From Candidatus Sericytochromatia bacterium (GTDB taxonomy: Bacteria > Cyanobacteriota > Sericytochromatia > S15B-MN24 > JAQBPE01), in assembly GCA_035285325.1 (NCBI GenBank), contig JAYKJB010000117.1, forward strand, positions 832 through 64,831: a DNA stretch of 64,000 nucleotides, given 5' to 3'. The position numbers and the translations under genes are program-made. Every line of letters starts with the position of its first letter. Position 1 is the stretch's first letter. Below are positions 6,273 through 27,182 of this stretch, piece by piece. The notes beneath the pieces are model-generated. The model searched no databases, was not told the DNA's origin, and worked only from the letters and a program-made list of their open reading frames with translations.

Positions 6273-6274
6273 AG

Positions 6275-6997: not shown

Positions 6998-7051
6998 TCG
7001 ATGGCCTCCTCAGCGGGAACCGCAAGCGCCACATACCCCTGCCGCGGGTAC

Positions 7052-9538: not shown

Positions 9539-10848
9539 GCCCGACCGGCGCCCCTACCACCCCGGAGACCCCCGCGCGGACAGGCCTCGGACAGGCGTTC
9601 TGCCGCTCCCTGGTGCTGAAAGGCTTCGCGGCCCTTCAGCGTGGCACCCTCACCCTGCACGAGGGAGGTCAGCGCCACACCTTCGGGGGCCGCGAACGGG
9701 CGGACCTGCAAGCCGAACTGACCATTCGGGATGGTGCGGCCTGGCGTCGCATCGCGCTGGGGGGCTCACTCGGCGCGGCTGAGGCCTATCTGCGCGGGGA
9801 ATGGGTCAGCCAGGACCTGCCCAGCCTGATTCGCCTGTTCGCGGCCAACCTGGCGGTTGCCGACGAGATGGAATCGACGCTCTCGCGCCTGCTGAACCTG
9901 CCCCAGGCCCTGGCGCACCGCCTGCGTCGCAACAGCCGGCAGGGGAGCCGCCGCAACATCCGCGACCACTACGACCTGGGCAACGACTTCTTCGCGCTGT
10001 TCCTCGACCCCAGCCTGACCTACTCCTGCGCCTGGTTCGACACGCCCGACACCCCGCTCGAGGCGGCCTCGATCGCCAAGCTTGACCGCGTCTGTCGCAA
10101 GCTGGCCCTGGGACCGAACGACCGCGTGGTCGAGATCGGCAGCGGTTGGGGCAGCTTCGCCCTGCACGCGGCCGGTCACTATGGCTGCCACGTCACGACC
10201 ACGACCATCTCGGACGCCCAGTATGAGGTGGCGTCCCGGCGCATCGCGGAGGCCGGCCTGACGGAGCGCATCACCCTGCTCAAGCAGGATTACCGCACCC
10301 TGACGGGCCAGTTCGACAAGCTCGTCTCGATCGAGATGATCGAGGCCGTGGGCGCGGACTTCATGGACGACTACTTCGCGACCCTGAGCCGCCTGCTGCG
10401 CCCGGATGGCCAGCTGCTGATCCAGGCCATCACCATGCCGGAGCAGCGTTTCGCGGCCTACCTGCGCTCGGTGGATTACATCCAGCACTATGTCTTCCCG
10501 GGCAGTGCCCTGACCTCGATCGGCGCCATGGCGCGCGCGGTCGGCCAGGCCACCGACCTGGGTTTCTTCCACGTGGAGGACATGTCCGCCCACTACGCGC
10601 GCACCCTGCAGTGCTGGCGCGACACCTTTCTGGCCCGCCGCGAGGCGGTGCTGGCGCTCGGCCCTTACGACGAACGCTTCATCCGCCTGTGGGACTACTA
10701 CCTGGCCTACTGCGAGGCCGGGTTCGCCGAACGCTGCACCGGCGTGGTACAGCTGGTGCTGACCAAGCCGGGCTGCCGCCGCGGCCCCATCGAGCTGCCG
10801 CTGCCAGCGGTAGCTTCTCAGGAGACGCCCAGCCTGGCCGTGGTCTAG
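9535..10848 (+). CDS. cfa: Cyclopropane-fatty-acyl-phospholipid synthase family methyltransferase
   Basis: SAM motif VVEIGSGWGSFALHAA, CFA-synthase C-terminal YDERFIRLWDYYLAYCEAGF. A 4-bp ATGA overlap with the desaturase stop implies translational coupling. Confidence 0.85.
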   Translation: MSPTGAPTTPETPARTGLGQAFCRSLVLKGFAALQRGTLTLHEGGQRHTFGGRERADLQAELTIRDGAAWRRIALGGSLGAAEAYLRGEWVSQDLPSLIRLFAANLAVADEMESTLSRLLNLPQALAHRLRRNSRQGSRRNIRDHYDLGNDFFALFLDPSLTYSCAWFDTPDTPLEAASIAKLDRVCRKLALGPNDRVVEIGSGWGSFALHAAGHYGCHVTTTTISDAQYEVASRRIAEAGLTERITLLKQDYRTLTGQFDKLVSIEMIEAVGADFMDDYFATLSRLLRPDGQLLIQAITMPEQRFAAYLRSVDYIQHYVFPGSALTSIGAMARAVGQATDLGFFHVEDMSAHYARTLQCWRDTFLARREAVLALGPYDERFIRLWDYYLAYCEAGFAERCTGVVQLVLTKPGCRRGPIELPLPAVASQETPSLAVV

Positions 10849-11495: not shown

Positions 11496-11796
11496 GATGA
11501 TTCTCCTCTGGCTTGTCGCTCATGTCTGGTCGGGCGGTTACAGCCGAGTAACAAGATCGGGAAAATCGTCCTAAGATTCTGTTAAATATCCGTCAAGAGA
11601 GCACCAAAAAACGTTCGCGCGTCAAGACCGTTCCTGCAAGCCCACTCTCCTCGCCTCGCGCCGCTCCCCGCGCAGGGCGCTCCCTGGCAGTCCGATGAAA
11701 AAACGGCATAATGAAAACCCAGGCTCGGCTCACCCTCACAGACCGCGGCCTGCCGCCCGTTTCCTGTCCCTGCTCCTGTTCGAGGAACGCTTCCCG
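11496..11796. promoter_or_regulatory. Low-GC divergent intergenic region upstream of msrB and the Gly-rich membrane protein gene
   Basis: gggaaaatcgtcctaagattctgttaaatatccgtcaagagagcaccaaaaaac. The only other markedly AT-enriched 300 bp in this part of the window. Confidence 0.3.
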
Positions 11797-12384
11797 ATGC
11801 TGCGCGCCCACCGATTCTTCTCCCTGCCCACGGCCAGCCTGCTGCTCGCGATGCTGGTGGCCTGCAGCGGCATCCCGGCCGAAAGTGCCCCCACCCCGGC
11901 CGGCAGCGCCGCCTACTCGGGGGCGCGAGTCAGCCTGAGCCCGGCTGCCTGGCGGGCGCGGCTCTCGCCCGAGGCCTATCGGGTGCTACGCGAGAAGGGC
12001 ACCGAACGAGCCTTCAGCGGCGCCCTCTGGAACGAGCACGGCACGGGCACCTACCAGTGTGCCGGCTGTGACTTGCCGGTGTTCGCTTCCGAGAGCAAGT
12101 TCGAATCCGGTACGGGCTGGCCCAGCTTCTTTCAGCCGCACACCCCCGGCCACGTGCGCGAAGCCCCGGATGACAGCCTCTGGATGAAGCGCACGGAGGT
12201 CTTGTGCGCCCGCTGCGACGGCCACCTGGGACACGTCTTTTCGGATGGGCCTGCGCCCACTGGCCTGCGCTACTGCATCAACTCGGCGGCCTTGCGCTTC
12301 GTGCCAAAGGCGCAGACGGGAGCTCCCAAGCTGTTCAAGCGAGGCGGAACGCCGGCAACCGCCCCCAGGCCAGGGAGCAGATGA
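11797..12384 (+). CDS. msrB: Peptide-methionine (R)-S-oxide reductase MsrB with lipoprotein signal peptide
   Basis: GAGGAA RBS. Lipobox [11 protein letters not shown]. SelR domain with CxxC...CxxC zinc motif ([19 protein letters not shown]) and the GWPSF motif. Confidence 0.85.
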
Positions 12385-12399
12385 CGGCAGAACCTGATC

Positions 12400-13809
12400 T
12401 CAGGCCATTTCGATAGCGCGGCGCTGCATGTCGAGGAAGACGCGCAGTTGCTCGCGGGTGAGCCGCCCCTGAGAGACCAGCACCTGGCCCAGGGGCGTGC
12501 CACTCCGTTCGGCTTCGTCCAGCGCCTGAGCGAGCTGCGAAGGTTTGATCACGCCGTGTTCCACCAGGAACAGCCCCAGCGGGCGCGGGCCACTGCCTTC
12601 CACGCTCAGGCGCGATTGCAGGGCCACGGCAAAATTGAGCTTGGTCTCGTCGATATAGCCCAGTTCCAGCGCCAGCTGGCCGAAGGCGATGTGCTTGCCC
12701 AGCCGCCGACGCCGGATCTGCTCGACCACCACGTGCTGGAGTTGCTCGTGCGAGAGGATATCCTCGCGCTGAAGGATGGCGCCCAGTAGCGATCGCAACC
12801 CCGCGCCGCCCATGGCCGAGCCGATCGCCGGCAACAGGTTCGGATCGCCGGCCGACTCCCCGGGACGCAGGTGCGGTGCCGCAGCCGGACGTCCTTCCGC
12901 TTGCGTCTGGCTGGATCCCGCCTCGCCCCCCGGGACGGGATTGAGTTCGAAGGCCTGCAGCACCCGCGGGCTGGTCAGCCCCTCGGCCACGATCAGCTCC
13001 CGCAGGGGGCCCCCCTCCTTGGCGTGCCGGTCCAGCACCACCAGCATGGAGACGGGAGAGACCAGGTCCAGCTGGAGCAGGTGGTCGACGAACATGCGAT
13101 CCAACGGGTCGAGCCGCTGCATCTGGTGCTGAAACGCCAGCGTGAAGTTCAGCTGGTAGGGCTCGAGCAAGCCGAGCATGACACAGGTTTCGCCCAGCTT
13201 CAGGCGTTTGCCGGCCGCAAGGCTGCGCTGCTGAGCCCGCAAGGCGGCCTCGAGTTCATTGCGGCCGAGCAGCCCCTGGCGGGCCAGAATCAGGCCAAAC
13301 AGTGGCCCCTGGAGCGTCGCCGCCGGGTCGACCGAGGGGTCCGCCGCAGGCAACGGGGCGCAGAACAGTCCAATGCCCTCCTTCACCCCACTCAGCTGGC
13401 GCAATACCAGATCGCCCACCTCCACCGCCACCTCGGCCTCGGGCCACAGCCACCACATGCCATCGCGCAGCGGAATGGGTGCCTCCTCGGACTCATCGAC
13501 GCCCGGCCCGATCCAGGCGCTGGGAATCACCATGGCTCCCCCGTTCGAGAGTTCGAAGGCCCACAGACCGCTCTGCAGCCGCCGCACCTCCAGCGCCCGC
13601 ACGTCCGGAGCCCCGAGCTCGGGGCCCACCGCCGTGGCCCAGACCGCCAGCAGGGTTTCGCGCGCCGCCAGGAAACCCGCGCGCACGCGCGCCTCCTCCT
13701 CGGACGCAGGCTTGCTGTCCTGATTGAAGGAGCTGATGCGAAGCGCCCATTCCCGCCCCGAATGCCACACCGTCGCCTCGGCCGGCATGCGTCCGGGCCT
13801 GAGTACCAT
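12400..13809 (-). CDS. Hypothetical protein with tandem T2SS-GspE-N-terminal-like (MshEN-type) domains
   Basis: Three repeats of the pattern L(S/T)xEQL..AL..Q...G.(R/K)LGE.L...G.I....L..AL. Start taken at the internal ATG at 13809. Confidence 0.45.
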   Translation of the reverse strand: MVLRPGRMPAEATVWHSGREWALRISSFNQDSKPASEEEARVRAGFLAARETLLAVWATAVGPELGAPDVRALEVRRLQSGLWAFELSNGGAMVIPSAWIGPGVDESEEAPIPLRDGMWWLWPEAEVAVEVGDLVLRQLSGVKEGIGLFCAPLPAADPSVDPAATLQGPLFGLILARQGLLGRNELEAALRAQQRSLAAGKRLKLGETCVMLGLLEPYQLNFTLAFQHQMQRLDPLDRMFVDHLLQLDLVSPVSMLVVLDRHAKEGGPLRELIVAEGLTSPRVLQAFELNPVPGGEAGSSQTQAEGRPAAAPHLRPGESAGDPNLLPAIGSAMGGAGLRSLLGAILQREDILSHEQLQHVVVEQIRRRRLGKHIAFGQLALELGYIDETKLNFAVALQSRLSVEGSGPRPLGLFLVEHGVIKPSQLAQALDEAERSGTPLGQVLVSQGRLTREQLRVFLDMQRRAIEMA

Positions 13810-14247
13810 GAGCGAAGGCGTTGCGGTCACGAGGTGGCTCCTCTGGGGTCGGCCCGGCAGCCAGGCGCCCACTGGCGCCGCGCGGGATGACAGGGCCGAA
13901 AGCGGCTGCCTCCAGCATACCCGAAGGCGCGCCGCTTGATTCGCGGCGAGGAGCAGAGGGCCGAATTTGCCCCGCATTCCAAAGAAACCAGGGAGTGAGG
14001 GGAAGCGACTTGCAGTGAAATGGTTTCGAAGCGGGAATGGTGTTGAGGGGCCCCGAGCGAGGGGGGTGCCCTCGCCCCTTCATCCGCAGGAACGACGCCC
14101 TTTTCCGATGACCCCCGACCCGACCACCGCTCCTTGCTGTCACGACCAGCAGTACAACAACCGCGCCCGAGTGCCCCAGGCCGAGGCCCACCTGGCCGAC
14201 CCGGCCCAGCGCCTCCACCGCCTGACCCGCGACTGGTTGACCCAGCC

Positions 14248-15432
14248 CTAGGCCGCGGCCGGCTGCCCCGCCGCCGGGGCCGGGGCGACGCGGAAGGCCC
14301 GCAAGAAGAAGGCCGGCATGCGCCCGCTGGCCAACCAGATCAGCGAAGGAATCATCTCCAGGCCGATGCGCCAGGCCAGCGGCAGCTGCCCGTTGAAGAA
14401 CCAGTACTTGTCGGAGCAGGCAAAGCAGATCACCACCGTCACGGCCAGCACCAGCAGGGCGATCACGTTGTCCTCCCGGTGCCGCTCCCAGTCGTGGGGC
14501 AGCCCCCGGACCTCCGACTTGTAGAGGGCGTAGCCGTTCACCAGGTCGAGCACCGGATAGAACGAGAACAGCACCAGCAACTCCAGGTGATAGCCCCACA
14601 AGAAATGGCCGGGATCGATGGTGAGCAGGCGATGGAAGATGTAGGGCAGCGTGATGAAGCAGCAGGCCAGGCTGAACAGGTGCTGACCGAAAATCAGGCG
14701 CGTGGGCACCCCACGCAGCGCGTTGATGTGACACCCGACGCTGAGAAACGACACGCCGAAGGCGCCGATGAAGCCGAGCGACATGAGCGATTTATCGCCG
14801 TGGGAGCCACCGGCGTGCGCCGCGGTGATCAGGCTCGGAAAGCCGAAATCGCCGGCCAGCTGGGTGAAGAAGAGGATCAAGCCGGTGGCCGCCATCAGGT
14901 AGACGTTGGTGAGCAGCATACGCGACACCGCCAGCCGGATCGAGGCCGCGGCCCGGCTGGTCAGGAACATGGCACACAGCGAGATGCAGGAGATACCGCC
15001 GAACACGTGCATGAAGTCGACCAGCAGGCGGGAAAGCGCATGGTCCCCCGTGAGCGAATGGCGGGTGAAGATGGCGTGGATCGGCGCGGCCTGATAGGCC
15101 GGCAGCAGGTGCTCGCCATCGCCGATCGGGGCCGTGAACAGGGACTCACCCGGCTGGGTGCGGGGCGCGGGGGCGGGGGCGGGCGGCAGTTGCGCCACGC
15201 GCTGGCGCAGCAACTGGGAAAAGGCCGTGCCCTCGGGGCGACCGGCCGCCATGCGCCAGGCCTCGGCGCCAGCCTCGAAGGTGAGCCAGCCGGCCAGGAT
15301 CAGGATCAGGGCCAGCAGGCCCTTGGACAGGTTGGAAAGCGACGCCACGGCAGAACTCCAAGGGAAAGAACGGCACCTCGCGCCGTCCGGACGGTGAGGG
15401 ACGGGCTGTTGCCGCCACCCAGGTGGCGGCAA
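14248..15432 (-). CDS. Polytopic membrane protein of unknown function, last gene of the lipoxygenase cluster
   Basis: Multiple hydrophobic helices (LLALILILAGW, LCAMFLTS, LILFFTQLAG, VLFSFYPVLDLV, VLAVTVVICFACS). Immediately downstream of the lipoxygenase gene on the same strand. Start uncertain. Confidence 0.55.
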   Translation of the reverse strand: MPPPGWRQQPVPHRPDGARCRSFPWSSAVASLSNLSKGLLALILILAGWLTFEAGAEAWRMAAGRPEGTAFSQLLRQRVAQLPPAPAPAPRTQPGESLFTAPIGDGEHLLPAYQAAPIHAIFTRHSLTGDHALSRLLVDFMHVFGGISCISLCAMFLTSRAAASIRLAVSRMLLTNVYLMAATGLILFFTQLAGDFGFPSLITAAHAGGSHGDKSLMSLGFIGAFGVSFLSVGCHINALRGVPTRLIFGQHLFSLACCFITLPYIFHRLLTIDPGHFLWGYHLELLVLFSFYPVLDLVNGYALYKSEVRGLPHDWERHREDNVIALLVLAVTVVICFACSDKYWFFNGQLPLAWRIGLEMIPSLIWLASGRMPAFFLRAFRVAPAPAAGQPAAA

Positions 15433-15441
15433 CAGCTGGGA

Positions 15442-16968
15442 TCAGTAACTGATCGAGGCCTTCCAGCGGTGCGGCTGCAGGCGCAGGAAGGGAATCGCAC
15501 GGGCCTGGTTCTCGGCGGCCAGGGTCTCATCCAGCTGCCCCAGCGCGTGCTGCAGGCCCATCAAGGAGGCCCGCAGCCGCGCGTCGGCCACCTTGGCGTC
15601 GAGGTCCATGGTCATCAGGAAGTTGCCGCCGTTATCGAAGCGTCCGGCATAGGCGCCCTGGTCGAACAGGAACACGTCCACCGCACGCGGCGGGTCCTGG
15701 TTCTCCGTCAGCAGGTTGTTGATGTGGATCAGCTTCTTGTGAGCCGGCACGTTCGACATGGTGAACGGTGAGAAGTCGCCGCAGACCTCATGCGAGACGT
15801 TCAGGTACAGGATCACCGTCAGCACCTCGACCAGCCGGTCGAGCGAGGCCAGCGGCAGGGCCTTCTGGCTGGCATCGGGCAGCAAGGCCACCAGCTGGGT
15901 GTACCAGGCCTGCAGGGCCGCATCGGCCGCCACCGCCGCATCGTCCCGATACACGGGCCCCACGTGGTTGCGCACGAAGGCTTCGAAGGTGTCCCAGATG
16001 CGCGGGGCGATCGCCACGTAGGGGTGATGGGGAATCCCGTCGATGCCCCGCTCGGCGATGTCCTTGCGCGGAATCAGCTGGTTCAGGCGGTAGCTCGGCA
16101 CGAAATTCTCGAAGGCCCGGCCCACCTGCTCGCCGGTGATGAAGTTCGACTGGATGAAGTAGCTGGCCGGCGTGACCAGCAACTTGAAGGCGAAGTCGTT
16201 GACCACCAGCGTGCCGTAGGTGAAGAAGTCCAGAAAGGGCCGCAGCGCGTGCTGAGCGGGCAGGGCCAGGGTCGAGATGGCGTAGGCCTGACCGGTGATC
16301 AGGTGGGTGTGTGCCAGGTGCCGCAAAAAGACGGTGAAGCGGGCGTCCAGCGCGTTGAAGACGAACTTGGCGCGTTCCCAGTCGGCATCGCCCGGGCGGC
16401 TGAGCCGATCGCCCCGGCGGATCGAGGCGACCCGAAACTGCTCGCCCTCGACCACAAAGGTGCCCACCACCGGCTCCATGATGCCGGCGAAGTGGGGTCC
16501 GAAATCGACCTCGTAGCGACCTTCCTGCACCCGCTGCAGCAGGAAGGGATTGGGGCCTTGCAGGCGCATGGCCGCAAAGGCGGCGTCATCGTGAATGTCA
16601 TTCCAGCCCTCGTCATGGGCCGGAAAGGGCGGATAGGGCATGGCGTCAGGCGACCAGGGCACTTCGGCCGACATGGGCGCGAGGCGCAGGGCATTGAACA
16701 CCACGCCGTCGAGGATGTAATAGGGCGCGATGTACTCGATCGACAGATGATTGGGGGCTGGGATGTAGCTGGGCACCTTGAGCGCCTCAGGCAGGATGCT
16801 GGAGCGGTAGTGCGAGCGCGCCGAAACGATCGGCGGCAGGCCCGCCGGTCGCGCGACCGGGTGCCGGAAGGTCTTGCGTGCCCAGATCTGCAAGGCGTTG
16901 CGGTTGACCTTGCGGGTGTCCAGAACCGCCTGGATTTTCAGGCGATCAACGAGGCCGAACGTCTTCAA
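15442..16968 (-). CDS. Lipoxygenase (bacterial mini-LOX, no PLAT domain)
   Basis: MRLQGPNPFLL motif, iron-ligand helix HLAHTHLI (H-x4-H), and a third His region NVSHEV. Start placed at the TTG after the GGGAGGG RBS. About 508 aa. The C-terminus is ...SISY rather than a terminal Ile. Confidence 0.8.
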   Translation of the reverse strand: MKTFGLVDRLKIQAVLDTRKVNRNALQIWARKTFRHPVARPAGLPPIVSARSHYRSSILPEALKVPSYIPAPNHLSIEYIAPYYILDGVVFNALRLAPMSAEVPWSPDAMPYPPFPAHDEGWNDIHDDAAFAAMRLQGPNPFLLQRVQEGRYEVDFGPHFAGIMEPVVGTFVVEGEQFRVASIRRGDRLSRPGDADWERAKFVFNALDARFTVFLRHLAHTHLITGQAYAISTLALPAQHALRPFLDFFTYGTLVVNDFAFKLLVTPASYFIQSNFITGEQVGRAFENFVPSYRLNQLIPRKDIAERGIDGIPHHPYVAIAPRIWDTFEAFVRNHVGPVYRDDAAVAADAALQAWYTQLVALLPDASQKALPLASLDRLVEVLTVILYLNVSHEVCGDFSPFTMSNVPAHKKLIHINNLLTENQDPPRAVDVFLFDQGAYAGRFDNGGNFLMTMDLDAKVADARLRASLMGLQHALGQLDETLAAENQARAIPFLRLQPHRWKASISY

Positions 16969-18256
16969 GGTGTGCCCTCCCAACAGGCAATTCGGGCTTC
17001 GTGGCGATGACGGGAGTGCCCCGCAGCGCCCGGGCCCACTGACCGAACTGATACAGGCGCACCCGCGCCCAGGCCACGGAGCGATAATCCTGTGCGCTCG
17101 TGGCGTGAAAGATCCCCAGGCCCGGCGGCTGGTGCGCCAGGGTGAAGGTGGTGCGGTCCGTTTCCTCGGGCGTCATGGCCGCCTCGAGCCGGATGTGGGC
17201 CAGGTCGCGCCAGGGGTGGCGGGCCTCGTCCCAGGGCCGGTTGAGGTGCAGCAGTTCCTGCGTATCGCCGTCGGCGGGCTCGCGCACCTGAATTTGCAGC
17301 ATGTAGTCGACCGGGCCCTGACGCAGGCGCGTCTGCCACTCCTGGCGCAGGTAGTCGGTGGGCCGATCGTCCTCCGGGTTGCGCTGCATGTTCCAGACCT
17401 GGGCCTGGCGGGCCGCATCGGGCAGGCCGCTTTCCTGGCCCAGGTCCGGCCGGCGCAGGCGGTAGCGGCAGTAGCGCAGGCGCCCGTCACGCCCCTCGTA
17501 GGGAAAGACCACCTGGGAGGTGTAAACCAGGTCGGCGTAGGAATCCGGCGCCTCACGCACCGATTCGATCCAGCTGATGTAATAGGCGGGCAACTCGTCC
17601 ATCAGCCGGCCCTGCGCGGCGAAGTCGCCCACTTCGGGCCGGCTGGCCAGGCGCGACTTGGAGAAGCGCACGAAGCTGTCCACGCTCCAGAGCGGGCCCT
17701 GGGTGCCGCTGTTGAAGATCATATCGAACGGGCTTTCCATGTCGCGGTCGCTGAACTTGAGGGCACACCCGCGCAGGGTGCAGGCCGCGTCGTCGTTGAA
17801 GGAACCGTTGGCATGGCGCAAGCGGCAAGCAAAGCGCCGTCCGGGCTGGAAGAAGGGGTGCTCGGGGATGTCCAGCTGCGACACGATGGTGGCCGTGCCA
17901 CGCGCGCCCACCCCCACCGGATGGGTGCCGCGGGTGCCGGTCTTGAGCCCGTGCAGCGCGAAGGCGGCAGCCAGGCCGTAGGTCTCGACGCGCAGGTTGA
18001 GCGCCCCCGCCAGGTTGCCGTCGGCCACCGGACCGTAGCAGCGAGCGGCCGCTGCGGCCCAGTTGGCCTCGCCGTTGCGCGCCTTCCAGAGTTCCACGCC
18101 CAGGTTACGCCAGGCGCCCTGGGTCGCGGCCAGCGGACTGGGCTCGACCGGCAACGGGCCGGCGTGGGGCGGCAGATCGATGCGATAGACCTTCAATGCG
18201 AGCCTCCCACGAACGGAGCAAGGTGGAACCAGGCCTTGGGCAAGAGCGTCAACCAC
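16946..18256 (-). CDS. Catalase-related heme protein (allene-oxide-synthase/hydroperoxide-lyase-like)
   Basis: Catalase distal-His core TH-PVGVGARGTATIV aligns with catalase VVHAKGAGAFGYFEV. R-L-R-Y-C-R-Y-R-L resembles the proximal-Tyr segment RLFSY.DT.R.RLG. About 430 aa, shorter than true catalases. Overlaps the LOX gene start by about 23 bp. Confidence 0.6.
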   Translation of the reverse strand: MVDALAQGLVPPCSVRGRLALKVYRIDLPPHAGPLPVEPSPLAATQGAWRNLGVELWKARNGEANWAAAAARCYGPVADGNLAGALNLRVETYGLAAAFALHGLKTGTRGTHPVGVGARGTATIVSQLDIPEHPFFQPGRRFACRLRHANGSFNDDAACTLRGCALKFSDRDMESPFDMIFNSGTQGPLWSVDSFVRFSKSRLASRPEVGDFAAQGRLMDELPAYYISWIESVREAPDSYADLVYTSQVVFPYEGRDGRLRYCRYRLRRPDLGQESGLPDAARQAQVWNMQRNPEDDRPTDYLRQEWQTRLRQGPVDYMLQIQVREPADGDTQELLHLNRPWDEARHPWRDLAHIRLEAAMTPEETDRTTFTLAHQPPGLGIFHATSAQDYRSVAWARVRLYQFGQWARALRGTPVIATKPELPVGRAHLEDVRPR

Positions 18257-19785
18257 CAGCCGAGCCCGACGGCCAGGCTGGCCAGCTGCGGCTGGGTCTC
18301 CTCCTCCGTCGCCATGAACAGGCCGGCGGCGATCAGGCCCATGCCGATGATCAGGTCACGCACGTGGATGTTCACGGCGGTGACCGGGTCATGGCCGGGC
18401 AGGAACGGGGGAATGCTGCCCTGGGCGGCCAACGCCTCGAGCGGCGCCGGCAAGCCGCTGCTGCTGGCGATCATCCACAACGCGGACACCAGGATCACCC
18501 CGGTGCCGTGCCAGGCCAGCCGCTTCCAGCCCGTGCGCGGCAGGTACTTCAGCAACACCACGGCCGCGTAGGTGGTCGAGATGGCCGTCATGAACAGCGT
18601 GGCCAGCCAGAAAGTAAGGTCCACCACGGGCGAGCCGCCCCACAGCGGTCCCAGGCCTCGCGCCGGCCAGGAGGGATGCAGCGGCGACCCCACCCCCAGG
18701 TTGGCCAGCAGCTTGGTCTCCAGGGTGAACCACACGGCGCTGAAGGGCAGCAGCCAGGCCACGATGGTGGCGTGCAAGCGGGCCTTGGGCCAGACGTCTC
18801 GCAGCAACAAGGCCACCAGCACCGCGAACCCTCCGATGATCAGGTCCTGGCGATGGATGTTGACGGCCAGCTCGCGGGCGTGCGGCGCGAAACTCGGCGA
18901 CACGCTGTACCAGGCGGCCGACAGCGCCATCACACCGACCGCCCCGGTGACCACCCAGCGCGTCAGCGACCAGGCCAGCCGCTGCACCTGGCGCTCCCAC
19001 AAGAGGTTGTAAGCGTGCAGGTACAGGCCCAGGCCCGCAAAGGCCGCATAACCGGCCATCAGCATCGGGTGGAAGCCCTGGTGGGCCAGCAGCGCGAAGA
19101 CGGCGATCGCCGTTGCTCGCACCGCCAGCGCAAGGGGCGCGGCCACCGGGGCATCCGAGCGAGCCGCCCAGAGCAGGGCCACGGCGTAGCAACCCGCTAT
19201 GGAGGTGGCAAAGCTGGTCACGTAGCCACTCGCCGCATCCAGCAACAGCGGCACGGAGGCCACCAGCACCAGCAGTATGGCCAGCTTGCCCTCCAGCATC
19301 ATCAGGCGCCGGGCCAGCGACTGGCTCCAGGTGTCGAAGTGGTTGCGCAGGCGCGGCCAGAGGGCCCGCGCGTCGGCGGACAAGGCCAGCATGGCGAGGG
19401 GCAGGCCGACGTCCACCGAGGCGATGAACAGGAACGCCCCGTTCTCCAGGTGGCCGAAGGCCCAGTTGGCCACCAGCCAGGGCCCCACCCAGACCAGCCG
19501 CCAGACCAAACTCAGGTCCATCAGGCTCTTTTGGCGCGACCACAAGGCGAACAAGTGGACCAGGCCCATCGGCGTGACCGCCACGAGCAAGCTGCGCAGG
19601 TGCAGCAAGCGATCGCCCTCGTAGGCCGGCACCTGCCCCGCCAGCGCAAACAGGGACGGCTGGAGGATGAACAGCGGCAGCGACAGGTAGATGAGGGCCC
19701 CAACCAGCATCAGCCACTCGTATATTCCCCAGGCGCGAGCATCGGGGGCAGCAGCGGGGGCGAGCGCGGGAGCGGGCGTGGTCAT
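18193..19785 (-). CDS. Polytopic membrane protein with an internal tandem duplication, first gene of the LOX cluster
   Basis: At least 12 hydrophobic segments. Two homologous halves (…ELAVNIHRQDLIIGGFAVLVALL… and …VTAVNIHVRDLIIGMGLIAAGLF…). Overlaps the catalase-related gene start. Confidence 0.55.
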   Translation of the reverse strand: MTTPAPALAPAAAPDARAWGIYEWLMLVGALIYLSLPLFILQPSLFALAGQVPAYEGDRLLHLRSLLVAVTPMGLVHLFALWSRQKSLMDLSLVWRLVWVGPWLVANWAFGHLENGAFLFIASVDVGLPLAMLALSADARALWPRLRNHFDTWSQSLARRLMMLEGKLAILLVLVASVPLLLDAASGYVTSFATSIAGCYAVALLWAARSDAPVAAPLALAVRATAIAVFALLAHQGFHPMLMAGYAAFAGLGLYLHAYNLLWERQVQRLAWSLTRWVVTGAVGVMALSAAWYSVSPSFAPHARELAVNIHRQDLIIGGFAVLVALLLRDVWPKARLHATIVAWLLPFSAVWFTLETKLLANLGVGSPLHPSWPARGLGPLWGGSPVVDLTFWLATLFMTAISTTYAAVVLLKYLPRTGWKRLAWHGTGVILVSALWMIASSSGLPAPLEALAAQGSIPPFLPGHDPVTAVNIHVRDLIIGMGLIAAGLFMATEEETQPQLASLAVGLGWWLTLLPKAWFHLAPFVGGSH

Positions 19786-20003
19786 GGCGAGCGATGCTTC
19801 CTCGGAAAAAGACGGGAAAACGGTGGCGTGTCATTGTGACTGATCCCCACCAAGCGAGGGAACCCTGTTAACAAAATGTTACAACACCACCGATCAGGCG
19901 CCTCCTGCGGCCCCGGGGCGTGGCAGCGCCTGCTCGGCTCCGGTGTGCCGACGAGCCTGCCTGTGCCGGGCCGTGGATGGCCGGGCCCCCTTGACCACCG
20001 CCG

Positions 20004-21272
20004 TCAGGTAGCCCGGAGCAAGCCCGGAAGCTGGAGGCCGGCGGGCGCCAGGCCAGGAAACAGACGGGCCAGCGTGGCCGTCTCCAGACCCGTGGGGCCG
20101 CCCAGCAGCGTGGCCACCACGCGGCGCCAGTCGGTCGTGACCGCCAGATCGCGCCCATCGAGACGCGCCGCAGGCGCCAGGCCCGGCCAGCGCCCGAGCA
20201 CCTGACCACCGGCCACCGGCCCACCGAGCAGCCAGAGCACGTTGCCGGCCCCGTGGTCGGTGCCGCCGTTGCCGTTCTCCGCCACTGTCCGGCCGAACTC
20301 CGACATGACCAGCACGGTGGTGCGCGTCAGCTCATCGCCCAGCCCAGCGGCCAGGGCGGCCAGACCGGACGCCAGCGGCCGCAGGCGGTTGGCCAGCTGC
20401 CCCTGGGCCCCGCCCTGGTTGATGTGGGTGTCCCAGCCCCCCACCGGCAGGAAGGCGCCGCGTATCTCGGGGTGGCGGCGCAGCAGGCGGGCCAGCACCT
20501 CGGCGTCCTGCACCAGCCCGACCGCCGAGGGCGCACCGGCATCCGCCTGGTTGGCCTCCGCCTCCAAGGCCGTCAGATCGGCCAGCAACCGCTCGCGCTG
20601 GGCACGCCCCTGGCGATAGGCCAGCGCCAGCGGATCATCCCCGCTGTAGAGGCGGTCGAAGGCCGTCTGCACCGCCGGGCGATCGAGCGCCATCGGGGCC
20701 TGGCGGCCCCGGCCCGGCGTCACCACCTGCACCCCTGGACTGCCACGCAGGATCGCGGGAATGCCGGTATCGAGGGCGATCGCCCCGGCCGGCGCGCCCG
20801 CCTCGAACAGCGCCAGCCAGCGCGCCAACCAGCCGCCCGCCGCCGCACCGCGCCCGAGCGTGCCGGCCTCCATGGCGGCCTGCGCCTCGAAATGCGAGCG
20901 GGCCCCGGCGGGATCGCCACAGGCATGCACGAAGGCCAGCCGGCGCCCCTCCCAGAAAGGCAACAGCGGCGCCAGCGCAGGATGCAGCCCGAATTCCGCC
21001 GTCAGCGGCAGCACCCCATCGGTCTCGCCGGGGGCACCGAGGGCGATCTGAGGCCGCGCCTCGGCGTAGTGCGGATCGCGATACGGCACAACCACACTGA
21101 GGCCATCCACCGCGCCGCGCAGGAAGACCACCACCAGCCGTTGCGAGGCAGGCTGAGAGCCGGCCCAGGCCCAGCCGGCCCGGCCCACCGGCCACAAGCA
21201 GGCCCCAGCCGCCAGGCCCAGGCCCTGCAGGAATTGCCGTCGGTCGATCCGGAGGTCTGGCACGCGATTCAA
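20004..21272 (-). CDS. DUF1501 family protein (sulfatase-like fold) with Tat signal
   Basis: Twin-arginine motif RRQFLQGLGLAAGA. DUF1501 hallmark C-terminal GGTDHG. Confidence 0.85.
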   Translation of the reverse strand: MNRVPDLRIDRRQFLQGLGLAAGACLWPVGRAGWAWAGSQPASQRLVVVFLRGAVDGLSVVVPYRDPHYAEARPQIALGAPGETDGVLPLTAEFGLHPALAPLLPFWEGRRLAFVHACGDPAGARSHFEAQAAMEAGTLGRGAAAGGWLARWLALFEAGAPAGAIALDTGIPAILRGSPGVQVVTPGRGRQAPMALDRPAVQTAFDRLYSGDDPLALAYRQGRAQRERLLADLTALEAEANQADAGAPSAVGLVQDAEVLARLLRRHPEIRGAFLPVGGWDTHINQGGAQGQLANRLRPLASGLAALAAGLGDELTRTTVLVMSEFGRTVAENGNGGTDHGAGNVLWLLGGPVAGGQVLGRWPGLAPAARLDGRDLAVTTDWRRVVATLLGGPTGLETATLARLFPGLAPAGLQLPGLLRAT

Positions 21273-22801
21273 TGCTCCTGAAATTCGGGAGCGCCCAGCA
21301 TGAGGGCCAGGCGCAGCGCGGGGGGCGCCGCGGCGATCGCCAGGCGGCTGCGCTCGCCGAAGGGCGACCCCAGGGTCTCGGCCAGTTCGTCCGGACGAAC
21401 GGTCGCCTGGCGGGCCGCCTGGGCCGCGAAACTCACCCGCCGGGCCATGGCCTCCGGGTTCAGCCAGGCCGTGCGTGCCACCGGCCAGCCATCCGGGGTG
21501 GCGCAGCCGTGGAGCGGTTGCCCCAGCCGGGCCATGGCCTGCAGGGCAGGATCGACCGAGTCGGGAAACTGCCCGCTGGCGCGCAAGGTCGAGATCACCA
21601 GGCGATAGGGCGTCTTGAAGCGCGCCTGACGAGCCTGTGGCGCCCAGAAGTCCGGATGGCTCAGCAGGCAGCGCAAGGTCGCATCCAGGCGGCCGTCGCT
21701 GGCCTGAAAGGCGGCCGCCGTCGCGTCGATCAGGGCGGCGGGCGGATCGTCCGCCACGAAACGGCAGGCCAGCTTGCGCGCCAGAAAGCGGGCCGTGGCC
21801 GGGTGCCGGGCCAGCAAGTCGAGGGCCTGCTCGCCCTCGGCCTGGCCGCCTTCAGGAATGGTCACGCCCAGCAGGCGCTTGGAGCCTGGGAGGTGGCGGC
21901 GGGCATCGAAATAAAAACCCTCGTCAAGCGCGCCACGGCTAGCGGATTGCGCCCCGCGCGGTTCCGGCCAGCCGCGCGGAAAGCCCCAGCCCGTCAGGAT
22001 CGCGGTCAGAGCCACCACGTCGCCCTGGTCGTAGCCGCCGTGGACGCCCAGCGTGTGCAGTTCCAGCAGCTCCCGCGCGTAGTTTTCGTTGACCCCGCTG
22101 AAGCGTCGGTTTTGCGGGTTGGGACGCGAATTGCGCCAGTTGTCGAGGTAATCGAGCATGGCCGGATGCCGGGCCACGGCCCCGAGCAGGTCGCGAAAGC
22201 GCCCGAAGGCCTGCGGGCGCAGCACCCGCTCTTCCATGTCGCCCAGCATCGCGCCGACCGCGCGCTTGCGGGCATGCACGTTGAAGTGGTCGGCCCAGAA
22301 CTCCACCATCACTTCCTGCAACTGGCGCGGGCTGGCCAGCGCGCGCCAGACCCGGGCCGCCTGGGCCTCGCGCAGCAGTTGCCGCTCGACCCGCCGGGCG
22401 GCGGCCAGGGCCGAACGGTCCTGCGCTTTCTGCCGCTTGGCCGCCTGCAGGGGCGCCCGGTACTGGCGGGCGCGCGCCAATGGCGAGAGCGTCAGCGTGC
22501 CGAGAGCGGCCAGGCGTTCGCGCAGGCGCGCCGGCTCCTCCAGACCTTCCGGCGCCAGCTGCTGGGCGATCCAGGCGGTGGCGCCCTGCGCCTGCAAGCG
22601 CGCCAGGTCTCCAGGAGCAGGCCCGTAGGCAGCTCGCTCGAGCAGGTGACGGGCCTCGGCGGCCGTCAGCAATTCAGGCGGGGCCGCGGCGGCGGGATTG
22701 GCCCAGCCAGTCGCAAGCAGCCCGGCCGCCAGGCCCAGCGCCCTCGCCGCAACGCACGTGCCGGCACTGGCAGCGCCCTCAGCCAAGGGCCTCGTCCGCA
22801 T
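21269..22801 (-). CDS. DUF1800 family protein
   Basis: Characteristic EFWADHFNV and LELHTLGV motifs. 4-bp overlap with the downstream DUF1501 gene, the classic pairing. Confidence 0.85.
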   Translation of the reverse strand: MRTRPLAEGAASAGTCVAARALGLAAGLLATGWANPAAAAPPELLTAAEARHLLERAAYGPAPGDLARLQAQGATAWIAQQLAPEGLEEPARLRERLAALGTLTLSPLARARQYRAPLQAAKRQKAQDRSALAAARRVERQLLREAQAARVWRALASPRQLQEVMVEFWADHFNVHARKRAVGAMLGDMEERVLRPQAFGRFRDLLGAVARHPAMLDYLDNWRNSRPNPQNRRFSGVNENYARELLELHTLGVHGGYDQGDVVALTAILTGWGFPRGWPEPRGAQSASRGALDEGFYFDARRHLPGSKRLLGVTIPEGGQAEGEQALDLLARHPATARFLARKLACRFVADDPPAALIDATAAAFQASDGRLDATLRCLLSHPDFWAPQARQARFKTPYRLVISTLRASGQFPDSVDPALQAMARLGQPLHGCATPDGWPVARTAWLNPEAMARRVSFAAQAARQATVRPDELAETLGSPFGERSRLAIAAAPPALRLALMLGAPEFQEH

Positions 22802-23117
22802 CGGCGTAGTGTTCCGGCTTCACATGGGTGCGCACGGTCTGCAACGCCAGGGCGATCGCCGCGGCGTCGTCGGTGAAGCCGAGCATGGGCAGCACATCCG
22901 GCACCATGTCGGCCGGCAGCACGAAATAGGCCAGCGCGCCGACGATCGTGGCTTTGACCCAGACCGGCGTCTCGCGGTCCTGCATGCAGTAGTACAGCGC
23001 CACCATGTCCTTGGCGAAGGGCAGGTGCTTGGCGACCCGTTTGAGCTTCTGCCAGAAAGCCCCGGCATCGAAAGCGGACGCGGAAAACGAGGATTGAGGG
23101 TCAGGCACGTCGGGCAC
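22779..23117 (-). CDS. DUF1232/YkvA-family small membrane protein
   Basis: LPADMVPDVLPMLGFTDDAAAI motif typical of YkvA/DUF1232. 112 aa. Confidence 0.65.
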   Translation of the reverse strand: MPDVPDPQSSFSASAFDAGAFWQKLKRVAKHLPFAKDMVALYYCMQDRETPVWVKATIVGALAYFVLPADMVPDVLPMLGFTDDAAAIALALQTVRTHVKPEHYADADEALG

Positions 23118-23177: not shown

Positions 23178-25904
23178 TCACGCGTCGTGAGAGGACGCGA
23201 AGGAAGGGGGCGGCAGGCTCACGCTGGCGGCGCCCAGCGCGGCGTAATCACGGGGCGTGCAGGTCAGCACGATCACCTGCAGGCCCTGCGCCGCAGCCAG
23301 GTCGAGCATGCCCTGCAGCCGGGCCACGCGCACCGGATCGGCGTTGGTGAAGGCATCATCGAGCACCACCGGAAGCCCTTCCCCCTGCGCCTCGGCCAGC
23401 ACCTCGGCGATCGCCAGCCGCACCGCCACGGCCAGTTGCTCCTTGGCGCCGTCGCTGAGCTCCGCGAAGGCGAACGAGAGGCCCCGGTTGAGCTTGATGC
23501 TGCCGATCGCCCCGCGCGTGGCATCGCTCTCCAGCACCAGCTGCAGTTCCGGGCCGAAGACACAGCGGGCATAGCGTTCGATGCGGGCCGTCAAGGGCGC
23601 CGTGTAGCGGGTCACCAGCTGGTGACGCTGGTCGCGAAAGTGGGCCTGGAGACATTCCAGCGCGCGCACGCGTTGCTCGAGTCGGGCCAGCTGGGCCGTG
23701 GCCCGCGCCAGTTCGGCCTCGGCCAAGTCCACCTCGGCAGCGGGGTCCAGGCTGCCGTCCGAGCGCAGCGTGTGTTCGTGCTGAATGGCCGCCTCCTCGG
23801 CGGCCCGACGCCGCTCGGCCTGCAGGCGCGACGCCCGCTGCAGGCGCTCGGTGTCTTGCCGCAAGGTTTCGGGCGCGAGCGCGGCCAGCTCCGCGCGCAG
23901 CTGGGCAAGCGCCTGCTCGACCTCGTCCCGGGCTCGCTGCGCGTCGTTCAGGGCCTGCTGGCGCAAGGCGTCATCGCCATGCTGACCGAGGCGGTCCGTC
24001 AGCAAGGCCTTCAGCCGCTGGAGCTCTTGCTGCTCCTCGCGCAGGCCCTGCTCCGCGTCGCTGACGTCCTGTCGCAGGCGCTCCCGCGCCGCCTCGCGCG
24101 TGGTCTTGAGCTGCTCGGCCGCGCGCCAGGCGCCCTCGGCCTGGGCACTGGCCTCGGCGGCTTCCCGGGTCCAGCGCTGCGCTGCCGCGAGCGTCTCGGG
24201 CAGGGCGATCGCCTCGCCCTGCAGCGCCACCCGCCGCTCCCACTCTCCCAAGGCAGTTTCATGGGCTGCTTGCGCGGCCGCCAGCCGCTCGGGCAGGCTG
24301 TCGGCCTGCGAGGCCTTCAGTTCGGCGTCGAGCGCCGCCAGCGCGCGTTCCAGCTGCTGGCGCGCTTCGGCCACCTGAACGGCGGCCTCGCGCGAGCCGA
24401 CCGTGAGGTCCGCCAGCGCCGCCTGAAGCTCGCCGTCGCTGCGGACGGCGGCCTCGCGCGCCTGACGCAACGCGTCGCCCCCTCCCGGCTGGATGCGCAG
24501 GCGCGTGCCGTCCGGCAGGCTGAGTTCCGTCGGCTCGCTGACCACCCGCGCGTCGCCAGCCTGGAGCGCTTCCCCGCCCAGGGTCACGCCCGCTGGAGCA
24601 GCCAGCACCTCGACGCCCGCCGCCATGGCAGCCAGGCCGGCGGCCGCCTGGTCGCGCAGGCGCTCCAGGCGCGTCAGCCGCTCCAGCTCGGCCGAACCGA
24701 TCGCGGGCAGGCGATGGAGCGCCTGCGCCTGAGTCAGCCGCTCGGCTTGCCGCGCCGCCAGCGCTTCCTGCTGCTGCACCAGGGCCTGCCAGGCCTCCCA
24801 GCGCTCCAGCCGGCGCTGGGCGGCCTCCGCCAGGGCAGCCGTTGCGCGGGCCGCCGACAAGCGGGTCTGCCCCTCGGCCAGCTCCGCCTGGGCCTCGCGA
24901 TAGCCCGAGGTGGCGGCATCCAGGGCCGCGTGCTTCTCGGCGATCGCCTGCTCCCGCGGAGCCAGCGCCTGCAGCGTGGTGGTGTATGCGTCGCGCAGAC
25001 CCTGGATTTCGGTCTCCACGGCCTGCAGCACGGCCAGTCGGTCCTGACGCTGCTGGGCCTGGGTCAGCAGGCTTTGTTCTTGCGCCTGCAAAGGCTGCAA
25101 GGCCGCTTCCCTGCGGGTCAGCTCGGCCAGCTGAGGCGCCAGCGTCTGTTCGGCCTCGGCAACTTCCTGCAGCGCCCCGCGCGCCTGTTCAAGACCCGTC
25201 ACGGCCTGCTGCAGGGCCCCCAGCCGCGCCTTCCGCTCGTTCAGGCTGGCCTCGGCCTGAGCCCTGGCCTGCAGCGCGAGGTCGAGCGGGCCGTGCGCGC
25301 GCGGCCTACCCGTGCCCGGCGTCTTGTAATCCGCCAGTTCGCTGCTCAGGCCGGCCACCACCCGCTCATCCCGCCAGGATTGTCCGACCACCGCACCGGC
25401 CTGCGCCTGCAGCCGTGCCAGCAAGGTCGGATGCTGGGCGCGCGTCGCGTCCAGCGGGTCGTCCTGGCTGTCGCCCTGGCGCACCCACAGGTGCGCCCAT
25501 TGCTCGCGCACGCCCTTGCCGGCGCGGCCGGCTTCCTGCACCCCGAGCAAACCCGCAAGCTGGCTTTCGGCCTCGTCGTTGTGCCACGTCGCCCCGTTCT
25601 CCTGTCGCAGGCTGGCCTGGCTCTGCGCGCCCCCGGCAAAGCGCTTGTGCAGCGTGTAGCGACGCCCGCCCCGCTCGAACATCAGCTCGACCTCGGGATG
25701 GCCGCCCCCCTGACGCGGCTGCATCGCACGGTGCATCTCGCCGGAAACCTTGTAGCGCAGGAACAGGGCATGGTGAATCGCCTCGACCAGCGTGCTCTTG
25801 CCCGCCTCGTTGGGCCCGCCGATCAAGGTGCGGGCCGGGTCAAAGGCCAGCGCGAGTTCCCGGTGGCCGCGATAATTCCGCAAGGTGGCATGCAGGATCC
25901 GCAC
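23178..25904 (-). CDS. sbcC: SbcC/Rad50-like ATPase with long coiled-coil
   Basis: The GTG at 25904 follows GAGGAGGG. Walker A GGPNEAGKST. About 650 aa of Ala/Glu/Gln/Arg-rich coiled coil. C-terminal signature-like ELSDGAKEQ and D-loop VVLDDAFTNAD. Starts 5 bp downstream of the sbcD stop. Confidence 0.8.
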   Translation of the reverse strand: MRILHATLRNYRGHRELALAFDPARTLIGGPNEAGKSTLVEAIHHALFLRYKVSGEMHRAMQPRQGGGHPEVELMFERGGRRYTLHKRFAGGAQSQASLRQENGATWHNDEAESQLAGLLGVQEAGRAGKGVREQWAHLWVRQGDSQDDPLDATRAQHPTLLARLQAQAGAVVGQSWRDERVVAGLSSELADYKTPGTGRPRAHGPLDLALQARAQAEASLNERKARLGALQQAVTGLEQARGALQEVAEAEQTLAPQLAELTRREAALQPLQAQEQSLLTQAQQRQDRLAVLQAVETEIQGLRDAYTTTLQALAPREQAIAEKHAALDAATSGYREAQAELAEGQTRLSAARATAALAEAAQRRLERWEAWQALVQQQEALAARQAERLTQAQALHRLPAIGSAELERLTRLERLRDQAAAGLAAMAAGVEVLAAPAGVTLGGEALQAGDARVVSEPTELSLPDGTRLRIQPGGGDALRQAREAAVRSDGELQAALADLTVGSREAAVQVAEARQQLERALAALDAELKASQADSLPERLAAAQAAHETALGEWERRVALQGEAIALPETLAAAQRWTREAAEASAQAEGAWRAAEQLKTTREAARERLRQDVSDAEQGLREEQQELQRLKALLTDRLGQHGDDALRQQALNDAQRARDEVEQALAQLRAELAALAPETLRQDTERLQRASRLQAERRRAAEEAAIQHEHTLRSDGSLDPAAEVDLAEAELARATAQLARLEQRVRALECLQAHFRDQRHQLVTRYTAPLTARIERYARCVFGPELQLVLESDATRGAIGSIKLNRGLSFAFAELSDGAKEQLAVAVRLAIAEVLAEAQGEGLPVVLDDAFTNADPVRVARLQGMLDLAAAQGLQVIVLTCTPRDYAALGAASVSLPPPSFASSHDA

Positions 25905-25908
25905 CGTT

Positions 25909-27081: not shown

Positions 27082-27182
27082 GATCCCTCGTGGCCTCGCC
27101 CCGGATGACCCCTTGAATGTACCCTGGGGAACCCTTTTGGCAAAGGGGACACCGACCACAGCGCCCGTCAGGAGACCCTGCC
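27082..27182. promoter_or_regulatory. Divergent promoter region between sbcD (minus) and the secreted nuclease (plus)
   Basis: 101-bp intergenic spacer with RBSs facing outward on both sides. No promoter elements were positively identified. Confidence 0.3.

Follow-up and report, generated by a model that had tools for sequence, protein, structure and literature searches.

A predicted lipoxygenase-coupled hemoprotein of the coral allene oxide synthase branch in a Sericytochromatia genome

Introduction

Enzymes related to catalase that rearrange fatty-acid hydroperoxides have been described from octocorals, from a few cyanobacteria and from one fungus, and they illustrate how a detoxifying fold has been recruited to the synthesis of lipid signals. 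The pairing of such a hemoprotein with a fatty-acid dioxygenase is already established in corals, cyanobacteria and a fungus. Here, we describe a gene for a protein resembling the catalase-related allene oxide synthase of corals (cAOS), referred to as the cAOS-like gene, which is located next to a lipoxygenase (LOX) gene in a 64,000-nucleotide stretch of contig JAYKJB010000117.1 from a Candidatus Sericytochromatia bacterium (the window). To judge from its sequence and a structural model, the gene very probably encodes a cytoplasmic, LOX-coupled hemoprotein of approximately 47 kDa that converts fatty-acid hydroperoxides and belongs to the coral cAOS branch of the catalase superfamily.

The closest solved and characterized relative is the cAOS domain of the AOS-8R-LOX fusion protein of Plexaura homomalla (Protein Data Bank [PDB] entries 1u5u and 3dy5). 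The cyanobacterial catalase-related hemoproteins, which we compare by description, are like the protein of the window encoded beside or fused to the dioxygenase that makes their substrate; they reportedly include a cAOS in Acaryochloris marina, a 10S-hydroperoxide lyase encoded beside a 10S-dioxygenase in Nostoc punctiforme, and a hemoprotein-LOX fusion in Anabaena. As the titles of the reports indicate, the products of the characterized cyanobacterial relatives differ, and include allene oxide and the aldehydes formed by the 10S-hydroperoxide lyase. The coral hydroperoxide lyase (cHPL), which is part of the HPL-LOX protein of Capnella imbricata, belongs to the same family and keeps the catalytic residues of cAOS, and the replacements F150L and YS176-177NL move its activity from that of a lyase to that of an allene oxide synthase (PMC5617202).

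The cAOS-like protein and coral cAOS share the catalase core without the C-terminal domain, an N-terminal extension and an identical set of Thr-His, Asn, proximal Tyr/Arg and three propionate Arg residues, and both are functionally linked to a LOX, in the present case by prediction. However, cAOS is fused to its LOX, whereas the protein described here is separate and encoded in an overlapping reading frame. It also has approximately 25 extra residues at the N-terminus, approximately 20 disordered residues at the C-terminus and a channel-entrance insert that is 8 residues longer, and it contains F175 and S208-W209 where cAOS contains L150 and N-L. Furthermore, the partner LOX has no PLAT domain, the host is a bacterium, and 2 membrane proteins are encoded in the same putative operon.

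Sequence Similarity and Predicted Fold

The cAOS-like protein matched no Pfam family at E ≤ 0.01 and no NCBIfam family, and its homology was therefore taken from a sequence search of the PDB and from a fold search. The phmmer search of the PDB identified the coral cAOS domain of P. homomalla, 1u5u, with an E value of 3e-76 (3dy5 was also matched), in an alignment of residues 48 to 412 of the maximal 436-amino acid reading frame with residues 2 to 363 of the chain and with 38% identity over 357 amino acids. The mycobacterial catalase-related protein 3e4w was matched with an E value of 1e-4. An AlphaFold2 model built on 20 homologs had a mean pLDDT of 90.8 and a pTM of 0.90, and the disordered part was confined to residues 399 to 416.

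In the Foldseek search of the PDB with this model, the first-ranked entry was 1u5u_A, with a TM-score of 0.92 (on the target) and a root-mean-square deviation of 2.1 Å over 369 columns. Next came 3e4w and 3e4y, followed by dozens of true catalases with TM-scores of about 0.5 and sequence identities of 15% to 20%. Among solved structures, the closest is that of coral cAOS rather than that of a catalase, and the model combines a catalase core fold with a small size and no catalase C-terminal domain, as is characteristic of the cAOS/cHPL family. An earlier note on this DNA, made from its letters alone, had proposed a small catalase-related protein and had made the proposal depend on a catalase fold and on the catalytic His and Tyr. 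Superfamily membership is borne out, far above chance, by the E value to 1u5u and by the TM-score; the model is confident and superposes best on cAOS, with catalases at a TM-score of about 0.5, and both the distal His (H92) and the proximal Tyr (Y382) are aligned.

Active-Site Residues

The protein was mapped to the published cAOS numbering with a HMMER alignment, in which the numbering of the chain reproduced G56, LK59-60, A65, T66 and H67. The list of heme and active-site residues of cAOS was taken from PMC5617202, residue numbers refer to the 416-amino acid form of the protein, and conservation was scored in the alignment of 20 homologs. All 8 mapped heme residues of cAOS are present, and each is invariant or at least 90% conserved. 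The predicted heme-coordinating Arg residues are R89 (cAOS R64, codon 17930-17932), R127 (R102, codon 17816-17818) and R389 (R360, codon 17030-17032). On the distal side, T91 (T66, codon 17924-17926) precedes the predicted distal His, H92 (H67, codon 17921-17923), and N162 (N137, codon 17711-17713) corresponds to the distal Asn. On the proximal side, Y382 (Y353, codon 17051-17053) is the predicted ligand and R378 (R349, codon 17063-17065) its partner. Conservation is complete for T91, H92, N162 and Y382 and reaches at least 90% for R378.

The distal motif H..G.GA.G....V, which had been read from the sequence before, is present as HPVGVGARGTATIV (residues 92 to 105, 17882..17923). The segment RxxY.RYRLR is present as well, as RLRYCRYRLR (residues 239 to 248, 17453..17482), but the role of proximal Tyr that had been given to it does not hold, as it aligns with the cAOS segment VRYCRYRAL, which is a strand of the β-barrel. 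The proximal ligand Y382 is instead located within A-R-V-R-L-Y-Q-F (the Tyr codon at 17051..17053), which aligns with R349 and Y353 of cAOS. Neither this misassignment nor the change in the upstream gene overlap reported below affects the overall conclusion.

The residue beside the distal His, which had been singled out as a means of telling cAOS from catalase, is Thr as in cAOS. Among 161 family representatives, T-H was found in 95 and S-H in 50, whereas the solved catalases aligned to the family profile have P-H or M-H at this position, and the mycobacterial protein MAP-2744c has L-H. Val-His is the usual state in catalases, and coral cAOS reportedly turns over H2O2 only after replacement of T66 by Val.

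These residues bear on the alternative that the protein is an ordinary, truncated H2O2-dismutating catalase. It shares the core β-barrel, the distal His and Asn and the proximal Tyr with the monofunctional heme catalases (PF00199), and one of the homologs carries the automatic label "catalase". Yet Pfam Catalase was not matched at E ≤ 0.01, T-H takes the place of the catalase pattern, and identities to catalases are 15% to 20% with TM-scores of about 0.5. The C-terminal helical/NADPH region that is typical of catalases is missing, and the 416 amino acids compare with about 480 to 700 in the matched catalases; neither a full-length catalase architecture (approximately 480 amino acids or more) nor a hydrophobic residue before the distal His was found. 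Coral cAOS is unable to scavenge H2O2 (PMC5617202). We regard a dismutating catalase as extremely improbable.

Gene Start and Overlap with the Lipoxygenase Gene

The cAOS-like gene is the second of 4 tightly packed genes on the minus strand, in the order A, cAOS-like, LOX and B, of which A and B encode membrane proteins. Its reading frame ends with the stop codon at 16946 and can be extended to a GTG codon at 18256, corresponding to 436 amino acids. The GC content at codon positions (GC3 0.83, GC2 0.53) has the profile of real genes in this window of 69% GC, and a long plus-strand reading frame across the gene failed the codon-position GC filter. Most likely, translation starts at the TTG codon at 18194-18196 and yields a product of 416 amino acids (16946..18196). 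This start is preferred because the putative ribosome binding site GGGAGG (18203-18208; with the start codon, 18194..18208 on the minus strand, as read from the sequence) is located 6 nucleotides upstream, because the codon overlaps the stop codon of gene A in the sequence TTGA, and because the public record contains a 416-amino acid call.

The overlap of the TTG codon with the TGA stop codon of gene A (18193-18195) amounts to 4 nucleotides according to both the sequence and the gene calls. The same 416-amino acid product and the same 4-nucleotide overlap were called in the public record (locus VKP62_14415, "hypothetical protein") and in an independent assembly. The reading frame described in the earlier note is thus real, but with a start at TTG 18196 the product has 416 rather than about 430 amino acids (436 being the maximum), and the upstream overlap of about 64 bp shrinks to 4 nucleotides. 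The overlap of about 23 bp with the LOX gene was upheld: the likely start codon of the LOX gene is the TTG at 16968, which follows a GGGAGGG sequence by 6 nucleotides and is located 23 nucleotides before the stop of the cAOS-like gene.

The sequence GGGAGG is found 6 nucleotides ahead of the TTG start codon in both genes, and by this arrangement the cAOS-like gene is translationally coupled to the LOX gene; the 2 proteins would be made from the same mRNA. Taken as a whole, the observations of the earlier note are partly confirmed and its interpretation is supported.

The Partner Lipoxygenase

The LOX gene (15442..16968, minus strand) encodes a protein of 508 amino acids, its TTG start codon at 16966-16968 following the GGGAGGG sequence at 16975-16981. 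The protein matched the Pfam family Lipoxygenase (PF00305) with 37.2 bits, as compared with a cutoff of 23.6, and no PLAT/C2 domain was found in the Pfam scan. Its best solved relative is the LOX of Pseudomonas aeruginosa (E = 7e-17), and a profile of the LOX subclade aligned over its full length to human ALOX15B (E = 2e-31). Residues H217 and H222 (in HLAHTH, 16303-16320) and H393 are invariant and align with 3 ligand positions of LOX. In the first pairwise and MAFFT alignments, a Glu appeared to replace the third His ligand, but this was rejected as the profile alignment to ALOX15B places H393 at that position.

Product Specificity

It had been suggested that the protein is an allene oxide synthase or another hydroperoxide-converting enzyme. 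The broader statement stands, whereas the evidence does not single out an allene oxide synthase, as F175 (codon 17672-17674) and S208-W209 depart from the cAOS-type L150 and N-L at the specificity-switch sites. Phe is present at site 150 in 140 of the 161 family representatives, and Leu is largely confined to octocoral sequences. Because Phe is the family default, the sites argue neither for nor against allene oxide synthase activity, and F175 was rejected as a lyase signature. F175 and S208-W209 lower the likelihood that the protein is a cAOS ortholog, but not that it can make allene oxide.

As a strict allene oxide synthase, the protein would dehydrate the LOX hydroperoxide to an unstable allene epoxide, from which alpha-ketols or cyclopentenones would form, as for coral cAOS. 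We hold this possibility only tentatively. Coral cAOS is the closest solved and characterized relative, the N-terminal extension is common to the 2 proteins and missing in the family members of 320 to 370 amino acids, and the catalytic residues are all identical. However, an identity of 38% is too low for product specificity to be transferred, the characterized cyanobacterial relatives vary in their products, and F at the first site and S-W at the second are not diagnostic given the family default. Moreover, cHPL is a lyase despite its high identity to cAOS and its unchanged catalytic residues (PMC5617202).

The protein may instead be a hydroperoxide lyase, an epoxyalcohol synthase or another isomerase of the same family, with a shared first chemical step and a different product, and we consider this a good possibility, if short of probable. 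The Phe at the position of cAOS L150 is found also in coral cHPL, the channel-entrance insert exceeds that of cAOS by 8 residues, and product diversity within the family is documented. The Phe is nevertheless little informative, being the general state of the family rather than a signature of cHPL, and the second cHPL determinant, Y-S at positions 176-177, is missing and replaced by S-W. Whether allene oxide, aldehydes or another product is formed cannot be predicted from sequence.

Family Size and Gene Order in Relatives

The cAOS-like family is rare: some 20 clusters were found among 5.8 billion, and the profile search gave about 300 strong representatives. The 20 relatives were retrieved by a word-indexed search of the clusters; about 17 of them are bacterial or metagenomic proteins of 400 to 416 amino acids, and the rest are octocoral AOS-LOX proteins with 34% to 35% identity. 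An exhaustive profile search of 1.84 billion representatives yielded 958 matches at E ≤ 1e-3 and 308 at E ≤ 1e-30. Many of these are LOX fusions of 750 to 1250 amino acids, and many others are stand-alone proteins of 320 to 370 amino acids that start at profile position about 65. Fusion-length representatives of about 750 to 830 amino acids also start at position about 65 and do not have the N-terminal extension seen here.

The cAOS-like protein falls within a bacterial clade of "long" sequences with about 26 representatives, whose N-terminal extension is partly common to coral cAOS. In a crude neighbor-joining tree, the coral sequences joined at a more inclusive node and coral cAOS was not nested within the bacterial clade, and a direct transfer from a bacterium to corals therefore received no support.

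A genome scan identified relatives in 3 metagenome-assembled genomes (MAGs) of Sericytochromatia, in a Pseudomonadota MAG, in Gemmatimonadales, in several Planctomycetota, in an Alcaligenaceae MAG, in a Polyangia MAG and in the cultured marine myxobacterium Plesiocystis pacifica SIR-1. To study gene order, the 4 operon proteins were compared by tblastn with all fetched loci, here designated by the letter L and a number. The order A-cAOS-LOX-B was found in 3 other Sericytochromatia contigs. In the Pseudomonadota MAG (L001), a fusion of patatin and A (patatin::A, 954 amino acids) is followed by cAOS and LOX. Loci L011, L027 and L028 have the order cyclic nucleotide (cNMP)-binding patatin-LOX-cAOS-A, with B convergent, and in L006, L026 and L033 the pairs A-cAOS and LOX(C2)-B are in opposite orientation. 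In Gemmatimonadales, A and cAOS are followed by a cNMP/NTE/patatin gene and, further on, by B, and in L029, LOX-A is convergent with cAOS.

The cAOS-like gene is thus located beside a LOX gene in Sericytochromatia, Pseudomonadota, Planctomycetota and Plesiocystis pacifica. By locus, the adjacency recurs in L001, L003, L011, L012-14, L018, L021-23 and L027-29. A and/or B co-occur with cAOS in Sericytochromatia, Pseudomonadota, Gemmatimonadales and several metagenome contigs, and the Planctomycetota, P. pacifica and others retain cAOS and LOX only. The link to LOX that had been proposed for the window is supported both by the overlapping genes and by the fact that relatives across several phyla keep the adjacency. 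A and B recur together with the LOX/cAOS pair and a phospholipase, but not in every case.

The 954-amino acid fusion protein (L001/L015, 5126-7990 in the Pseudomonadota MAG contig JAUXQH010000090.1) consists of an N-terminal patatin and a full-length homolog of A that is 49.5% identical to the gene A product over 507 amino acids, and its gene is located directly upstream of the cAOS-like and LOX genes.

It was also noted that 2 marine loci, L030 (CEOP01457811.1) and L010 (a TARA scaffold), encode a cNMP-binding patatin, B and A, with no detectable cAOS or LOX. The intervening reading frames of 494, 269 and 345 amino acids matched nothing in Pfam and may code for another set of oxygenases. The FAD oxidoreductases encoded beside cAOS in L016 and L005, where LOX was not detected, were considered as orthologous substitutes for LOX and rejected, as only the Rossmann motif matched. 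Among the fusions, a protein of 1255 amino acids (P0025) starts with a segment that by eye resembles an acyl-CoA-binding domain, followed by cAOS and LOX, and in a protein of 1955 amino acids (P0058), cAOS and LOX are preceded by a multi-pass membrane domain of approximately 880 amino acids. The possibility that the N-terminal membrane domains of such giant fusions (P0058, P0088) are relatives of A or B was rejected, as a comparison showed no relation.

In P. pacifica SIR-1 (L022, NZ_ABCS01000010.1, approximately 5950-8170), a LOX gene whose product ends in SINA is located directly upstream of the cAOS-like gene. The cAOS-like protein is 43% to 46% identical to that of the window, and the locus is without A and B. 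As a cultured carrier of cAOS and LOX, P. pacifica is a possible experimental model. More broadly, the locus places free-standing, coral-length versions of the enzyme, with the N-terminal extension and Thr-His, in non-photosynthetic relatives of cyanobacteria and in at least 4 other phyla. Linked to 2 conserved membrane proteins and patatins, the LOX/cAOS pair provides a gene set for probing bacterial oxylipins, their source lipids and their purpose. The searchable literature contained no description of LOX/cAOS operons in Sericytochromatia or Plesiocystis, and no report of the free-standing coral-length form in Sericytochromatia and several other phyla, of an operon with the orphan proteins A and B, of the patatin::A fusion or of the atypical LOX metal site described below.

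Two Orphan Membrane Proteins

Gene A (18193..19785, minus strand) encodes an orphan polytopic membrane protein of 530 amino acids with about 14 to 16 helices, and gene B (14248..15348, minus strand) another of 366 amino acids from the GTG at 15348, the maximal reading frame extending to a TTG at 15432. Nothing in Pfam or NCBIfam was matched by either protein. Relatives of A were found in 18 clusters among 5.8 billion. Its AlphaFold2 model (pLDDT 87.7) is almost wholly helical, and Foldseek gave no significant fold match in the PDB. A helix pair is repeated within the protein (residues approximately 289 to 354 and 455 to 524, 34% identity, E = 1e-6), and the repeat units carry the motifs NIH(R)QDLIIG and NIHVRDLIIG. 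Residues H311, Q313, D314, H370, H474 and D477 are invariant or nearly so.

For B, 3 close clusters were found, and remoter homologs adjoin LOX or A in other loci. Residues H97, H114, C206-H207, H290-R291, E256, D268 and N271 are invariant across 6 homologs with identities down to 32%, and the 4 invariant His residues together with Cys206 suggest a metal or heme site in the membrane.

Two further elements were noted in the sequences that flank these genes. The spacer between LOX and B contains a perfect 11-bp hairpin, GTTGCCGCCAC-CTGG-GTGGCGGCAAC, with a 4-nucleotide loop and no T-run (15408..15433, minus strand), which is located directly 3' of the LOX stop codon, overlaps the most upstream possible start of gene B, and may serve in the processing or stability of the mRNA. 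The 218-bp gap that precedes gene A contains an AT-rich near-palindrome, TTGTAACATTTTGTTAACA (19866..19884, minus strand), in a genome of 69% GC. It may be a candidate promoter or operator of the operon; a scan for the sigma-70 consensus gave no match at this site.

Proposed Pathway and Alternatives

We favor a cAOS-type hemoprotein acting on the product of the adjacent LOX, because the sequence, the predicted fold, the active-site residues and the gene context agree. The pathway would begin with a polyunsaturated acyl chain being made available, a step that the patatin would perform in the relatives; here, where the 64 kb encode no patatin, it would have to fall to a lipase encoded elsewhere, or be bypassed by direct action on esterified lipid. 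The LOX would then dioxygenate the polyunsaturated fatty acid to a hydroperoxide, the O-O bond of which would be cleaved by a Tyr-ligated ferric heme (Y382, R378) under the distal residues H92 and N162, while T91 would keep the distal His in a state unfavorable to reaction with H2O2. An epoxy-allylic intermediate would finally give rise to allene oxide or a similar compound, for example an epoxide or the aldehydes that result from chain cleavage.

No hydrophobic, signal-like segment was found at the N-terminus of the cAOS-like protein or the LOX, and both are therefore taken to be cytoplasmic. The membrane-embedded proteins A and B would hold, supply or remove lipids, and they probably anchor the pathway at its membrane lipid substrate or handle its products. 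What the analysis establishes is the homology, the predicted fold, the conservation of the active-site residues, the coupling of the genes and the synteny; heme binding, the substrate, the product and the roles of A and B are all proposed by analogy with the coral and cyanobacterial enzymes.

Several observations weigh against this reading. The Pfam and NCBIfam scans left the cAOS-like protein unrecognized, and its specificity-switch sites match neither the cAOS nor the cHPL pattern. No LOX was detectable beside the cAOS-like gene in L005/L017, L016, L020 and L024. Our search of the whole window found no patatin or phospholipase gene, and the only nearby gene that may bear on a supply of polyunsaturated fatty acids is one for a membrane desaturase. 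In the fourth-ligand region of the LOX itself, SHEVCGDF (15772-15795), the residue at +4 is Gly rather than Asn, His or Ser and that at +5 is Asp, and the protein ends with Tyr (SISY) instead of Ile; the carboxylate of the C-terminal residue normally binds the metal in LOX.

Both deviations are kept in the 5 closest LOX sequences, and an intermediate form, with THEHVGN and a C-terminal Ile, is found in L011 and L029. Because the canonical fourth ligand and the C-terminal Ile are missing, activity is not assured; from its sequence, the partner is a divergent LOX for which activity is plausible.

The neighboring genes bear on yet another alternative, namely that the hemoprotein is a lipid-hydroperoxide peroxidase without a biosynthetic role, which would detoxify non-enzymatic peroxides of membrane lipids in concert with A, B and, in relatives, a patatin removing the damaged acyl chains. 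A small bacterial hemoprotein with a catalase fold, the 33-kDa MAP-2744c of Mycobacterium avium subsp. paratuberculosis (3e4w/3e4y), is the second-best structural match, and as the title of its PDB entry indicates, this catalase-related protein has reported peroxidase activity. The membrane-protein and patatin neighbors, the methionine-sulfoxide reductase gene near the cluster both in the window and in L001, and the relatives without LOX also fit such a role. However, a dedicated, translationally coupled LOX would produce peroxides, not remove them. The protein is also far closer to cAOS (TM-score 0.92) than to MAP-2744c, which is about 100 amino acids shorter, is approximately 20% identical (E = 1e-4; TM-score 0.53 to 0.75) and has Leu-His rather than Thr-His. 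We consider detoxification improbable.

The 4 genes, joined by a patatin in relatives, could go further and work as an undescribed bacterial oxylipin machine set in the membrane, with A and B as indispensable partners in catalysis or channeling and not bystanders. The duplicated NIHxxDLIIG helix pair of A, its lack of a fold match in the PDB, its fusion to a patatin in one MAG and the possible metal or heme site of B would fit this stronger version, which we think rather unlikely. A possible division of labor is that A presents or extracts acyl chains of the bilayer for the LOX, and that B converts or exports the unstable product of the cAOS-like enzyme, giving a bacterial lipid signal.

Neighboring Genes in the Window

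Directly downstream of B, a gene at 12400-13977 (minus strand) encodes a protein of 525 amino acids with 2 MshEN-type cyclic-di-GMP-binding motifs. Together with the cyclic-nucleotide-binding domains on patatins elsewhere, these predicted motifs hint at second-messenger control.

On the plus strand, a gene for a membrane fatty-acid desaturase (8618-9538), whose DesA-family match is weak and far under the curated cutoff, shares 4 nucleotides with a gene for cyclopropane-fatty-acyl-phospholipid synthase (9535-10848), and this lipid-modifying pair is separated from the end of gene B by about 3.4 kb. A methionine-sulfoxide reductase MsrB (SelR) with a lipoprotein-like N-terminus is encoded at 11695-12384 (plus strand), and an MsrA (PMSR) gene was found near the homologous cluster in the Pseudomonadota MAG (L001, 242-892). 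Directly upstream of the cluster is a DUF1501/DUF1800 gene pair (20004-22801, minus strand), and further upstream are genes for a DUF1232 protein (22779-23117) and for SbcC/SbcD-like proteins (23178-27159).

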